NCBI GenBank assembly: GCA_036635835.1
Contig: JAVWPP010000001.1
Coordinates: 132,890 to 196,889 of the forward strand
From: Clostridia bacterium
GTDB taxonomy: Bacteria > Bacillota > Clostridia > TANB77 > CAG-465
Direction of reading: 5' to 3'
Length of the DNA stretch: 64,000 nucleotides
Position 1 is the first letter of the stretch; each line of letters opens with the position of its first letter. Shown here piece by piece: positions 31,110-58,928 of this stretch. The translations under genes and the position numbers were made by a program. The notes below the pieces were generated by a model that saw only the letters and a program-made list of their open reading frames with translations, was not told the origin of the DNA and made no database searches.

Positions 31110-33062
31110 TTAGTCTTCGAAATTATCCGATTTTCCAAATAATTCATCAAATTTTTTTTCTAAAGCTGATTGTATATCTAATTCCTCGGGTTCTGGTTTG
31201 TTTTGCATTGCATCACTTATTGTATTGTTTTTATTGTTTTCTTGTAATTTATTATCTCTAGCTTGTTCAATTTCTTTTGCAAGTCTCTTATTTGTATTAA
31301 AATGTTCTTCTACATTAAAAGTTTTTGGTTCTACATGTTCAAACTTAGGCGCATCTACATAGTCTTTAATTGAATACTTAACTACATTATCTTTTTCAGG
31401 ATGGTATTTAAACCACCAGTATTTTTGTGCCCTTATTGGTTTAAGACCTCTAACTATTAATATTAAATCTTCCATTGGTAAACGTTTTAATTCATCAACG
31501 GTCATTAATTCTCTGCCTTGACGCTGCTCACTAATTGAAACGCCCTTATTGCCATCTCCACCTTTATCTTTTGAGAATGACTTGCTTTCGATTTTTATAG
31601 TTTTTTGACCTAAACTTTTAACCATATATTCGCAAGTTTTAATTGACTGACTTCCTAAAAATAGCTGCGTATCGCAGTTTGCAATGATAGTTTCAAATTC
31701 TTTATATAAATTTTCTAACTGATCTATACTTTGTACAATTATTGATACGCTTATACCTCTACTTCTAGTTGTACTTAATTTTTGTGTGAAATCTGGTATC
31801 TGTCCTATATTTGCAAATTCATCTAATAACAAATAAACTTGTTCTTTTAGCATTCCACCATTTTTATCTGCAGCTGAATATAATTTAGTCATAAGCTGTC
31901 CATAAAATATAGTAAGTATATAATTATATGCTGAATGATCATCTGGTGAAACTACGTATATAGCAGTTTTTCTTCTTCCTAAGTCTTCAAAATCTATATT
32001 ATTTGTTGTTGTTATTTTTTTTATGTTAGGTGAATCAAAATGTGCAAGTTTAGAAACTGTTGAAATTGCTATACTTTGCTTAGTTTTATCTGCAGCAACT
32101 TTTAAGCTTTCATATTCTTTTCTTGCAGCATGTTCTGGATCTAGTTCATCGATAAAAAGCTTATCAAATACTGAATCGTCTGCTCCACCTGCTCTTATTA
32201 TATTAGCGCAACTAGAAAGATTTTTTTCTTCTTCTGGAATAGATGATCCTAAAATATAATATATGCATGATTTAAGCAACATTTTTGCAGTATCTGTCCA
32301 AAAAGGATCACCGCTATTTTTGTCATCTCCAGAACCACCAGTTACAATGGTATGAGCTATTACATCTACATCCTTGTAGTCTATAATATGAGCTAATGGG
32401 TTGTATCTGTCACTATAATCTTGATTAACTAAATTAAATACTTTTACATCGTAACCAGATGCTCTTAAATATTCTGATGTTTCTCTATATAATTCGCCTT
32501 TAGGGTCTGTAATTACGTACGAACCTAGTTTTTGCAAAATATTTGGTTTAACGTAGCAGGCAGATTTACCTGTACCAGAACCACCGAATACTAATATGTT
32601 TTTATTAATTGCTACTTTTTTTAAATCTGTACCTAAAAAATGTGTTCTTGTTAATATGAAACCATTTTTTCTATTTAAAATTTCTTTACCATTTAGTTCT
32701 TTAAATTCTTCGCCTTTTTTACTCCAGTCACTCGAACCATTTTCTTTACCAGAATAATCTGATTTATTAGCTTCTTCTATACTTAACTTTATTGTTGCAG
32801 CTGCAAAAAGTCCAAACGTGATTAAAGATAAAACTCCAACTATATTTAATGTTTCTTTGCTATTAAACATATATTTAATATTATCTATTGGTTTGGTTAA
32901 ATTTGCTTTAAACGATTCCGTAAATTTAGGCATGCGTTGTATTATATTGCTTGCTTCATTTGATACTTGATTCCATGAAACTGACAGTGGAAGCACTAAT
33001 ACCAGAACAACAACTACATATAAAAGTAGTACTACTATTATCTTTTGTTTAGCGTTTTTCAT
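31110..33062 (-). CDS. VirD4/TraG-family type IV coupling protein (conjugative-transfer ATPase), orphan
   Basis: The 650-aa ORF has two N-terminal TM helices. It contains the Walker A motif VFGGSGTGKSACYVKPNI, the family-typical ITDPKGELY motif, and the Walker B motif VYLLLDEFANIG. The C-terminal tail is acidic. Confidence 0.7.
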   Translation of the reverse strand: MKNAKQKIIVVLLLYVVVVLVLVLPLSVSWNQVSNEASNIIQRMPKFTESFKANLTKPIDNIKYMFNSKETLNIVGVLSLITFGLFAAATIKLSIEEANKSDYSGKENGSSDWSKKGEEFKELNGKEILNRKNGFILTRTHFLGTDLKKVAINKNILVFGGSGTGKSACYVKPNILQKLGSYVITDPKGELYRETSEYLRASGYDVKVFNLVNQDYSDRYNPLAHIIDYKDVDVIAHTIVTGGSGDDKNSGDPFWTDTAKMLLKSCIYYILGSSIPEEEKNLSSCANIIRAGGADDSVFDKLFIDELDPEHAARKEYESLKVAADKTKQSIAISTVSKLAHFDSPNIKKITTTNNIDFEDLGRRKTAIYVVSPDDHSAYNYILTIFYGQLMTKLYSAADKNGGMLKEQVYLLLDEFANIGQIPDFTQKLSTTRSRGISVSIIVQSIDQLENLYKEFETIIANCDTQLFLGSQSIKTCEYMVKSLGQKTIKIESKSFSKDKGGDGNKGVSISEQRQGRELMTVDELKRLPMEDLILIVRGLKPIRAQKYWWFKYHPEKDNVVKYSIKDYVDAPKFEHVEPKTFNVEEHFNTNKRLAKEIEQARDNKLQENNKNNTISDAMQNKPEPEELDIQSALEKKFDELFGKSDNFED

Positions 33063-33127
33063 ATTTAATTCCTCTCTCGAAAGTATATATTTATTATACC
33101 TTTCTTTATATAAAAACTAATATATTA

Positions 33128-33313
33128 CTATAATATTGGTCCATCTTCTTGGACTTTGACTCTCTTCTCTAATCCTCTAACATTAACGTTTTGAGACTGT
33201 GTTTGATATCCTCTGTTTTGAGGTATTGTGCTTCTTGTTTCTTCTTTAAATAATTCCTCAATTTCCTTAGGAACAAGAACGGCTGCATTTATAATAAATT
33301 TAAATAATCCCAT
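33128..33313 (-). CDS. small hypothetical protein (61 aa)
   Basis: The ORF lies between the GyrI-like gene and the coupling-protein gene. It is hydrophilic and shows no recognisable family. Confidence 0.3.
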   Translation of the reverse strand: MGLFKFIINAAVLVPKEIEELFKEETRSTIPQNRGYQTQSQNVNVRGLEKRVKVQEDGPIL

Positions 33314-57022: not shown

Positions 57023-57209
57023 TTCACCATATATTTTATCTCCTGTTATTAGAATATCTAAACTGTTTTTTCTGATATACTCAATTACTTCTTCTTTATA
57101 TAATATGCTTGTTTCTACAAATTCGTATATTTCTTCTTTCGAATCACAAGCTCCATCTACATACTGATCTATAAATGGTATATCTATTGCAATTAAAACC
57201 TTTTTTATT

Positions 57210-58928
57210 TTAATCTCCTCCTTCTATTATTTCTTTTTCAAATGCCATGCTTTTAACTTCTAGATATATTTCTGTATATTCTATTTTTGCAAGGCATGAA
57301 CCTTTACTTAATATTTTTAAACTATCTTCTGATTCTAAGGCGTTTTTTATTATTTTACTGATTTTATCATCTAAATAATTAATAGAAAAAATAAATTTAA
57401 AATTACTATTATTTAATATACTTTTTCCTATTTCTCCATCGTCTTTGTTAAATAAATCATTTATATCTTGTGTACTAGTTAAAATACTACCGTTTTTCTT
57501 TCTTATTGTTTTATATAAATTAATGATTTCATTTTCACAATTGCACCCACCATAACTATTCATAAATCTCCAGACTTCATCTATATATACTCGCTTTAAA
57601 TTTAACGTATGATTTATAATTTTATCTAACATAAAAAACACAAAATTCATAGCTTTACCTAGTCTATCTAGTTGTATTTTAGATACATCAAAAACTACTA
57701 ATTCTTTAGATTCATTTATTATATCCAATATTTTTTTACTTGTATTTGCGTTAAAATATACTAATTCGTTTTCAAAAAGCAGCATTAATTTATTTTTTAA
57801 TTCGATATCTGTTATATATTCTATTACATCATAAATAGTGGGTATTTTATTCCCAGTCTTAATTATCTCTTTAATATACACGACATTATCCAACTCATTA
57901 GTATATACACTCTTTTTATCTTCTGTGATGCTAAATTTCAAGTATGCTTTTTTTATACATTCTTTTAACAAGTGTGCTTCGGTTATTGAAAGAGTTGTTT
58001 TTGAATTTATAATATTTAATATACTATCTATCTTTACTTCTAAAAAGTTTTCATTTAAATTTTTTTCAAATATAAATTCCATAATGTTATACTTAGTATT
58101 TATATCATTTAAATCTATTATAGCGCCATCTAATTTGTTAGCAAGCTCTAAATATTCTCCTTCTGAATCTATTATATATTGATGTATTTTAAATATTTTA
58201 CTTTTTAAAATCAATGTTTTTATAAAATATGATTTGCCAGAGCCTGAACTTCCCATTATGAAAATGTTTGAATTTTTATATTTCTTATTGAAAAAATCGA
58301 TAGTAACAATGTTCTGCGTATTTATATCATTTCCTAAATATATACCTGAGCTATCCTGTAGCTTATTTGTTATAGTAGGAAGTAAATATGCAAGTCCTGA
58401 AGATAAAATATTATTTTTATTATTTGCCGATGAACTTGTTGGCATATGTGATAAATAGCCATCTAATTGTCTGAAATTCATTCTTTTAAAAACAGCATTG
58501 TTTGAATATAAAATTGTCTCTATTTTTAATATACTTTGATTTAGCTTTTCTACATTTGTATCTGCTTTTGTAATTATAATATCTATATTATATAAATCCT
58601 CACCATACACTTGTATTTTTTTTCTTATATCTTTAACATCTGCACCATAGTTTTCTAATACATCTATATCTATTTGATTATTTCTGATTGTTTGTATCTC
58701 TGATGCGTTATTAGTGATGTTTTGAGATATTATATTTAATACTTCTTTTTTGTTAATTGTGTTTATATAGTATGATATATTAACATTATTTAAGTTGTTA
58801 AGTTCTCCAATTAATTTTGCAAAGTAAATATTTTTGGGGAGTTTATAGCATAATATTGAAATAAAAAACTTACCTTCTGTTTCAATATATCTATAATCTG
58901 AATTTTCCAAGTATGAATTATGATACAT
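57210..58928 (-). CDS. VirB4/TrbE-like (DUF87/AAA_10) ATPase
   Basis: The 572-aa ORF contains the Walker A motif IFIMGSSGSGKSYFI, the Walker B motif VYIDEVWRF (DE[AV]W type) and the C-terminal ILTSTQDINDL (VirB4 motif-D-like). The 235-aa spacing between Walker A and Walker B is typical of VirB4/HerA. Confidence 0.5.
   Translation of the reverse strand: MYHNSYLENSDYRYIETEGKFFISILCYKLPKNIYFAKLIGELNNLNNVNISYYINTINKKEVLNIISQNITNNASEIQTIRNNQIDIDVLENYGADVKDIRKKIQVYGEDLYNIDIIITKADTNVEKLNQSILKIETILYSNNAVFKRMNFRQLDGYLSHMPTSSSANNKNNILSSGLAYLLPTITNKLQDSSGIYLGNDINTQNIVTIDFFNKKYKNSNIFIMGSSGSGKSYFIKTLILKSKIFKIHQYIIDSEGEYLELANKLDGAIIDLNDINTKYNIMEFIFEKNLNENFLEVKIDSILNIINSKTTLSITEAHLLKECIKKAYLKFSITEDKKSVYTNELDNVVYIKEIIKTGNKIPTIYDVIEYITDIELKNKLMLLFENELVYFNANTSKKILDIINESKELVVFDVSKIQLDRLGKAMNFVFFMLDKIINHTLNLKRVYIDEVWRFMNSYGGCNCENEIINLYKTIRKKNGSILTSTQDINDLFNKDDGEIGKSILNNSNFKFIFSINYLDDKISKIIKNALESEDSLKILSKGSCLAKIEYTEIYLEVKSMAFEKEIIEGGD

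Follow-up and report, generated by a model that had tools for sequence, protein, structure and literature searches.

Genes for three ATPases of the kinds used in conjugation were identified in a 64-kb stretch of a Clostridia genome (GCA_036635835.1, contig JAVWPP010000001.1, positions 132,890 to 196,889), referred to below as the window, and all coordinates given here count from its first base. The window has a GC content of about 28% and carries nearly all of its genes on the minus strand. It is 100% identical to contig JAVWGE010000002.1 of the Clostridia metagenome-assembled genome (MAG) GCA_036640735.1, and identical also in Logan assemblies of two sequencing runs. One locus, at 31-34 kb (31110-33864, module 2), encodes a VirD4-like coupling protein (D4) and two small companions, while the other, at 53-59 kb (module 1), encodes six proteins including a VirB4-like ATPase (B4) and a CpaF-like ATPase (E) (Table 1). 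An original prediction, made from the DNA letters and their open reading frames (ORFs), had described these three as the dispersed ATPases of one type IV secretion system (T4SS). All three were recovered where it had placed them, with D4 and B4 intact, and the housekeeping genes that it had named between the two loci (rarA, tkt, rpoC, rpoB, spmAB-like genes and tadA) are present. The third ATPase, given there as VirB11/CpaF, is CpaF-like as predicted, but it does not appear to be a VirB11 and its gene is not a single ORF. Taken together, the genes probably derive from conjugation machinery, of at least two Gram-positive kinds, that has become a resident part of the chromosome.

Table 1. Genes of the two loci, listed as gene and predicted product, coordinates in the window, strand, and state or basis of assignment.
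D4, VirD4-like type IV coupling protein	31110..33062	-	650 aa, intact; CD1115-family and Pfam matches
d61, small ORF (61 aa) between d172 and D4	33128..33313	-	positional conservation only
d172, partner gene of D4 (172 aa, soluble)	33346..33864	-	conserved linkage to D4
X, lineage-specific soluble all-helical protein (239 aa)	53257..53976	-	part of the N-B4-X core
F, polytopic membrane protein of T2SSF (TadB/TadC/PilC platform) type (296 aa)	53979..54869	-	orthologue matches
E, CpaF/TadA-like (T2SSE superfamily) ATPase gene	54866..56033	-	disrupted by +1 frameshift
MinD/ParA-like ATPase with extra N-terminal domain, CpaE/TadZ-like architecture	56027..57208	-	Pfam CbiA
B4, VirB4-like ATPase domain protein	57210..58928	-	572 aa, intact; Pfam matches above cutoffs
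N, stand-alone ORF (161 aa) matching the VirB4 N-terminal domain	58939..59424	-	synteny and weak similarity

Relatives were collected by scanning with a VirB4-family profile, one genome per species, and the best 80 of the 390 obtained were examined. All 80 are uncultured Clostridia MAGs, among them Clostridium sp. CAG:571 and CAG:1219. A contig scan with the VirB4-like protein alone returned no relatives, and the profile-based scan was needed. Individual loci are cited below by number (L001 and so on) where they have to be told apart.

D4 is predicted to be a bona fide type IV coupling protein. It scores 425.9 bits against the NCBIfam family conju_CD1115 (NF045973, cutoff 250) and 249.6 bits against Pfam T4SS-DNA_transf (PF02534, cutoff 20.1, E 8e-74), and it is also matched by TraG-D_C (PF12696, 121.6 bits) and TrwB_AAD_bind. 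Two transmembrane (TM)-like segments are located at the N-terminus (residues 2-34 and 70-95), and the Walker A (GGSGTGKS) and Walker B (YLLLDE) motifs are found at residues 160 and 410, respectively. The surroundings of D4 in the window are prfA, murE, comEA, dacB, cvpA and rarA, with no relaxase or mating-pair-formation system, and a housekeeping context was found around it in L009, L090 and L096 as well. Orthologues with 55-76% identity occur in many Clostridia MAGs, which is far above the 30-36% observed for B4 in the same genomes. In L090, where D4 is 63% identical, about 20 consecutive genes, rpoC through tuf, are shared with the window in the order rpoC-tkt-rarA-DUF5711-cvpA-dacB-comEA-d172-small ORF-VirD4-prfA-murE...fusA-tuf, leaving aside one inserted transglutaminase-like gene. 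Between these two loci, identities of D4 and d172 (65%) are similar to those of RarA (70%) and Tkt (64-69%), and those of MurE (44%), DacB (41%) and ComEA (48%) are lower; D4 evolves as slowly as the neighboring housekeeping genes.

The two companions of D4 have little resemblance to described proteins. The d172 gene was found immediately upstream of D4 in five of the five loci examined, with 46-65% identity, and had no match in Pfam, NCBIfam or the PDB. Its homologs form only 55 representative clusters among 1.84 billion proteins, and a single-sequence AlphaFold2 (AF2) model was unusable (pLDDT 32.8). An ORF of 50-75 aa is usually present between d172 and D4, as in L008/L096, L009 and L090, and d61, which occupies this position in the window, has no detectable sequence family. 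A D4-like gene of 702 aa with a d172-like partner was also observed in GCA_045534225.1 (L091:7752-14296) directly upstream of spoIID, an M23 peptidase gene and spoIIID, a sporulation neighborhood not seen at the other loci. The transglutaminase-like gene mentioned above (28736-29896) encodes a lipoprotein with a weak match to the Mycoplasma MAG6410 family (83 bits) and lies between prfA and murE; since it is missing from the otherwise collinear L090, it is a lineage-specific insertion. The DUF5711 protein gene (36482-37693) keeps its place between rarA and cvpA in L009 and L090 as well as in the window, and evolves fast, with 24-34% identity where RarA has 66-70%. Literature searches on DUF5711 returned nothing relevant.

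B4 is predicted to be an ATPase of the VirB4/TraC superfamily, in agreement with the original prediction. Its scores against P-loop_TraG (PF19044, 40.6, cutoff 25.8) and AAA_10 (PF12846, 34.3, cutoff 27.5) pass the Pfam cutoffs, and those against the NCBIfam equivalogs stay below all cutoffs (NF045975, 149.9, cutoff 590; NF045971, 127.6, cutoff 325). The Walker A (GSSGSGKS) and Walker B (VYIDE) motifs are invariant in a family whose members are 30-35% identical. B4 spans only the C-terminal two thirds of VirB4 profiles (positions ~200-700 or 333-893), and the missing N-terminal domain is likely to be encoded by N, so that VirB4 would be split into two ORFs here. N lies directly upstream of the ATPase ORF in all 84 loci, and it is collinear, weakly (E 0.037), with residues 28-166 of a fused family member, P0034. 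Its orthologue in L001 has a weak match to the TraC-like family PF26593. Fusions of N and B4 are found in a few relatives (L040; P0034, 765 aa), and P0034 covers positions 4-732 of the 752 in the VirB4 CD1110 profile with 289 bits (cutoff 325).

The third member of this core, X, closes the module in 64 loci. It has neither a Pfam match nor a PDB sequence match, and its 81 homologs all come from these Clostridia MAGs. The AF2 model of X is confident and all-helical (pLDDT 89.7), and comparison of this model with PDB folds gave no match at E<=0.001. Three small hydrophilic ORFs (59, 112 and 76 aa; 59494-60342, plus strand) diverge from the VirB4 module. Their conservation extends to those relatives in which this module lies between yfmH and ylbF, and they match no family.

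The remaining three genes of module 1 appear to make up a Tad-like core, in which E is flanked by the MinD/ParA-like gene and by F, a T2SSF-type platform gene. E carries one inserted base at about position 55154, which leads to a premature stop at 55146-55148. The first ORF (55146-56033) ends in the 0 frame with ...VVGEIKRT*, and the +1 frame carries on as GPESLVYLDSISTGH... to 54866. The same lesion is present in three assemblies (GCA_036640735.1, Logan SRR25820357 and Logan SRR25820359) and therefore represents a real and recent inactivation. Programmed frameshifting was ruled out, as ten E orthologues consist of one ORF each (390-442 aa) and the site has no slippery run. When repaired, E remains below all NCBIfam cutoffs, including those for VirB11 (TIGR02788, 133, cutoff 250), the TadA type (TIGR03819, 123, cutoff 373) and TrbB (118, cutoff 305). 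A profile of E and its orthologues matched CpaF best among PDB entries, nearly over the full length (133.6 bits), followed by VirB11 HP0525 (108.5), archaeal GspE (100) and FlaI (87). These scores suggest a protein closer to CpaF/TadA than to VirB11. We also considered SpoIIIAA/AB as an identity for the E-F pair and rejected it, as spore_III_AA is not among the best 18-25 NCBIfam hits per protein.

The extra N-terminal domain of the MinD/ParA-like protein is about 150 aa long. The profile of this protein matched MinD (4V03, 72.6 bits) best in the PDB through the C-terminal domain only, and generic MinD/ParA domain matches were obtained with no CpaE/TadZ family match. The first ATG of the gene is at 57022; its frame is open upstream to an ATA codon (57208-57206) that follows a GGAGG motif and stands where the orthologues, about 400-445 aa long, start. 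No ATG, GTG or TTG is present at this ancestral start. F has four to five TM-like segments and a weak match to UpsF (5.6e-8). T2SSF (PF00482) was matched by 11 of 11 F orthologues at E<=1; the strongest of these matches reached 2.7e-7, and the window copy only 0.29. The ORFs at 53-60.5 kb and in the orthologous loci include neither a Flp pilin nor a prepilin peptidase (TadV/A24).

Conservation of gene order and divergence indicates that both loci are old residents. Both keep their gene neighborhoods in relatives at 33-63% identity. In L004, where VirB4 is 33% identical, the same six-gene module occupies the same place between yfmF/H and ylbF-amidase-tadA, in the order rpiB-yqeY-yfmF/H-...-N-B4-ParA-E-F-X-...-ylbF-amidase-tadA as in the window. 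About 60 of the best 80 loci have N-B4-X or N-B4-ParA-X between gyrB and gyrA, and about ten more have the window-type location between yfmH and ylbF. N, B4 and X were found in nearly every one of these loci that is not ended by a contig edge, with ParA in about half and with E and F in only about a dozen distinct loci. The Tad-like genes (ParA, E and F) have thus been lost repeatedly across the clade, with N-B4-X kept, and this genome, with its frameshift in E and a ParA-like gene without a canonical start codon, appears to be in the midst of such a loss.

Pairwise identities of the VirB4-like proteins correlate with those of GyrB (r=0.85, Mantel p<=5e-4, n=56) and of YfmH (r=0.93, n=9). In close pairs of relatives the ratio of nonsynonymous to synonymous substitution rates (dN/dS) is 0.07 for B4, 0.17 for N, 0.19 for X and 0.17 for ParA, compared to 0.05 for gyrB; the module genes are under purifying selection in the relatives where this ratio could be estimated. 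GC content at third codon positions (GC3) is 0.12-0.20 in every window gene, and module 1 owes its lower total GC to the first and second codon positions. The remaining ORFs of the 64-kb window are housekeeping genes with no relaxase or integrase among them, and neither a cell-wall hydrolase nor a VirB6-like gene is present there. Neither locus appears to have been acquired recently, judging by GC3, the missing relaxase and integrase, synteny, co-divergence and dN/dS. Features expected of an integrative and conjugative element (ICE) are likewise not seen in the window: an integrase and a relaxase are missing, GC3 is uniform, the position is fixed and divergence tracks that of host genes.

Additional T4SS-type parts were detected in relatives. 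In L001, L016, L024 and about 55 other loci (e.g., L001:7483-20162), genes derived from T4SSs are interleaved with essential replication genes near the replication origin (oriC), in a striking and conserved order, dnaA-dnaN-recF-gyrB, N-VirB4-(ParA)-X, gyrA, dnaI-dnaB, VirB3-like-VirB6-like-pilin-like-coupling-protein-like. The set downstream of gyrA in these gyrB-type loci, beside dnaI-dnaB, consists of four genes, here called the c-module. It encodes a protein with two TM segments (c96), a polytopic membrane protein (c291), a VirB2/TrbC-type pilin-like protein (c108) with a weak match to T4SS_pilin (PF18895, E 0.002-0.012), and a coupling-protein-like ATPase of about 565 aa (c476; TrwB_AAD_bind, 7e-13). 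Their dN/dS values are 0.10-0.12. Homologs of c291 (E 7e-47) and c96 (E 7e-16) were also found upstream of dnaB-dnaI in GCA_026415435.1 (L096), which has the window-type arrangement and carries D4 on the same contig. Since the c-module and D4 occur together in this genome, D4 is an additional coupling protein and not a replacement for c476. No VirB2-, VirB3- or VirB6-like genes of this set were found in the window in a HMMER search made with --max, the default filters having removed every match because of the AT-rich composition.

Comparison with plasmids points to different sources for the two modules. The best plasmid matches of B4 are in the Geobacillus subterraneus plasmid pGspE55-1 and a Clostridioides difficile BI1 record, both of which combine PrgI, an N-like ORF, a VirB4-like ATPase, a large membrane protein and an M23 hydrolase. 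On pGspE55-1 these are accompanied by an ATPase, CpaB, a ParA-like protein, a CpaF-like protein, two T2SSF proteins, a replication-relaxation protein, topoisomerase IA and a coupling protein. The Sulfobacillus plasmids pL15 and pY0017 have a backbone of MinD-like, CpaF-like, TadB/C-like, relaxase, TraG-like and VirB4-like genes (PMC6803676). Because MinD, CpaF and TadB/C-type genes are combined with VirB4 and a TraG-type coupling protein on these Firmicutes plasmids, module 1 resembles a hybrid conjugation backbone that is known but has received little study, and a plasmid backbone of this "T4SS + Tad-like" type is suggested as its ancestor. D4 has a different affinity. It scores 344 bits against a CD1115-type plasmid coupling protein, 31 against the hybrid-plasmid coupling protein and at most 48 against c476, and it is c476 that matches the hybrid-plasmid coupling protein (62-82 bits). 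These opposite score patterns favor an independent origin of each of the two loci (31-34 kb and 53-59 kb). Since D4 belongs to a different coupling-protein lineage and the modules were probably fixed separately, the three ATPases are probably not one canonical T4SS triad.

We consider that the two modules are probably separately fixed and vertically inherited pieces of Firmicutes conjugation machinery which now belong to the core chromosome of a low-GC, spore-forming clade of uncultured gut Clostridia. The source organism is most likely a spore former itself, as the window encodes YabG, SpmA/B-like, CwlD-like amidase and DacB-like proteins. Our best guess for the role of B4 and D4 is an exapted translocation machine that serves the host. 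A membrane-associated VirB4-like hexamer, together with N and X, would energize a conjugation-derived translocon, the membrane parts of which could be the VirB2-, VirB3- and VirB6-like proteins and the second coupling protein encoded in relatives beside dnaB-dnaI. The TM-anchored VirD4-like ATPase and d172 may form a receptor or pump for a substrate, either DNA or protein, and could feed the VirB4 translocon or work alone. Either way, the function would be a host function and not self-transfer. DNA exchange or uptake and a sporulation-linked role are the leading guesses, and the hints for them are weak and not conserved: the D4 unit has comEA as a neighbor in the window and L090, and spoIID and spoIIID in L091. 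A broader version of this proposal, to which we give a little less than an even chance, is that a conjugation machine has evolved, in the clade as a whole, into an organelle encoded by the core genome and working for the host, for example in chromosomal DNA exchange or uptake or in sporulation-linked transport. Such an organelle would be built of the split VirB4 with X, the VirB2/3/6-like proteins and the two coupling proteins, maintained by strong purifying selection and encoded mostly interleaved with gyrB, gyrA and dnaB-dnaI near the origin.

Several points weigh against this interpretation. B4 scores 127-139 bits against the hybrid-plasmid VirB4s and 76 bits against the CD1110-type VirB4, and other family members score equally against both; the difference is only modest, so the ancestry of module 1 is suggestive and not proven. 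The assignments of N to the VirB4 N-terminal domain and of c96 and c291 to VirB3 and VirB6 draw on weak similarity, position and topology. The state of the MinD/ParA-like gene is ambiguous, as ATA, though rare, is permitted as a start codon. Co-divergence was measured against linked neighbors, and co-transfer of a large block would fit these correlations too, though gyrB is an essential core gene. Finally, the stretch of this genome covered here amounts to 64 kb, or 74 kb with L005.

Another possibility, which we regard as doubtful, is that D4 and d172 have a housekeeping role independent of any T4SS, for example in division, sporulation or DNA uptake, as a membrane pump for DNA of the FtsK/SpoIIIE type, and are functionally separate from the VirB4 module. 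The much stronger conservation of D4 than of B4 in the same genomes would fit such a role, and in the loci examined D4 never adjoins other T4SS genes. Another coupling protein is already present beside the T4SS membrane genes of relatives, the organism has markers of a spore former, and the neighbors of D4 include comEA (window, L090) as well as spoIID, the M23 peptidase gene and spoIIID (L091). However, the D4 neighborhoods differ between lineages, so the adjacency to comEA and spoIID is not conserved. D4 also passes the equivalog cutoff for conjugal coupling proteins and keeps the TraG-D_C domain, which in coupling proteins recognizes relaxosome partners, and our literature searches found no experimental precedent for a role of this kind.

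It is unlikely that the three ATPases arrived together, in a single integration of one ancient conjugative element that rearrangement later dispersed, as the original prediction had considered. Firmicutes plasmids with VirB4-like, CpaF-like and TraG/VirD4-type ATPases in one transfer region do exist (PMC6803676). In most relatives the VirB4 module and the coupling-protein module are at most 10 kb apart around gyrA and dnaB-dnaI, and in L096 a VirD4-like gene lies 3.4 kb downstream of gyrA. Yet it is c476 and not D4 that is nearer to the hybrid-plasmid coupling protein, and CD1115-type coupling proteins of plasmids sit in T4SSs without Tad genes. The presence of both the c-module and D4 in L096 also means that D4 is not a displaced cognate coupling protein. 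An ancient origin, as part of that earlier view, is supported by our data, well beyond what the letters alone could show, and GC3, synteny, co-divergence and dN/dS do not agree with debris from a recent break-up. Two independent acquisitions had been offered as the alternative; separate origins are indeed the better supported of the two, and recent acquisition is not. A CpaF-like protein of Tad type together with a different composition of the loci had been named as evidence against common origin, and we find the first, with E being Tad-like, and not the second, as GC3 does not differ between the loci. The prediction thus holds in part, both for what lies at these loci and for how it was explained.

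Least probable of all, and in our view very improbable, is that these genes are non-functional and slowly decaying relics of integrated conjugative elements: the frameshift in E, the missing start codon of the ParA-like gene, the absence from the window of a relaxase, an integrase, a cell-wall hydrolase and a VirB6-like gene, and low GC at the first two codon positions of module 1, as is typical for weakly constrained proteins, would agree with decay, but N, B4, X, F, D4 and d172 are of full length, catalytic motifs are invariant across proteins of 30-35% identity, dN/dS is 0.07-0.19 where estimable, retention in the same place extends over about 80 species-level genomes, and D4 and d172 are conserved like RarA and Tkt.

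Two observations concern other parts of the window. The segment 50397-50632, immediately upstream of tadA (50687-51163), contains two tRNA-Arg genes, a CCT gene on the minus strand and an ACG gene on the plus strand. As tRNA-Arg(ACG) is edited by the deaminase TadA, the enzyme and its substrate are encoded side by side. An S10-Clostridia ribosomal protein leader (Rfam RF03136, 52 bits; 4573-4653) was identified upstream of the ribosomal protein operon at the left window end. Promoter and terminator scans showed no enrichment over shuffled sequence and were not used.

To our knowledge, most known cases of conjugation systems exapted for host functions come from Gram-negative pathogens and archaea. 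The conjugation-derived genes described here behave as core genes, with vertical inheritance, fixed position and dN/dS close to that of gyrB, in dozens of species of an abundant but uncultured lineage of gut Clostridia, and the Tad-like sub-module has been caught at several stages of loss. They offer a concrete and testable case of T4SS domestication in Firmicutes, and flag X and d172 as uncharacterized and tightly linked partner proteins. They also advise caution in annotation, as ATPase matches alone are insufficient to call ICEs or "T4SS triads". Our literature searches found no relevant account of a chromosomal VirB4/VirD4 system in Clostridia, and the closest known systems each share only some features with the genes found here.

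The CD1110/CD1115-type T4SS, known from CTn-type elements of Clostridioides difficile and from plasmids of Paenibacillus, Bacillus and Clostridium, is similar in that D4 passes the CD1115 cutoff and is 35-41% identical to the plasmid coupling proteins, and in that the VirB4-like family, with the fused P0034, aligns end to end with the CD1110 profile. On those plasmids the coupling protein gene is accompanied by genes for PrgI, a fused VirB4, an NlpC/P60 hydrolase, MobC and a relaxase, with no Tad genes. In contrast, D4 of the window is accompanied only by d172 and d61 among housekeeping genes, is vertically inherited, and has neither relaxase nor hydrolase genes in the window. The hybrid backbones of pGspE55-1, pL15, pY0017 and the BI1 element have the same gene families as module 1 and partly the same order, with MinD/ParA-like followed by CpaF-like and T2SSF genes and an N-like ORF followed by a VirB4-like gene. 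Unlike module 1, they have a relaxase or relaxation protein, a coupling protein of the other lineage, CpaB, a second T2SSF protein, a prepilin peptidase (BI1), VirB6-like genes and M23 hydrolases; their proteins share just 22-27% identity with those of the window, and X is absent from the plasmids.

The Tad/Flp (type IVc) pilus is similar in that CpaF is the nearest solved relative of E, and a T2SSF-type platform gene and a MinD-like ATPase gene flank E. It differs in that the window and the orthologous loci have no Flp pilin, prepilin peptidase, TadE/F/G or CpaB; only one platform gene is present, no Tad family cutoff is reached and the ATPase gene is broken here. T4SSs exapted for the host include Helicobacter ComB for DNA uptake, the gonococcal genetic island (GGI) of Neisseria for DNA release, and archaeal Ced/Ted for DNA import. 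As we propose for the Clostridia genes, these combine conjugation-derived ATPases and membrane parts on the chromosome without self-transfer driven by a relaxase. They are contiguous operons or islands with demonstrated functions, whereas the genes described here belong to a Gram-positive spore former and occupy three or more conserved loci of its core genome.

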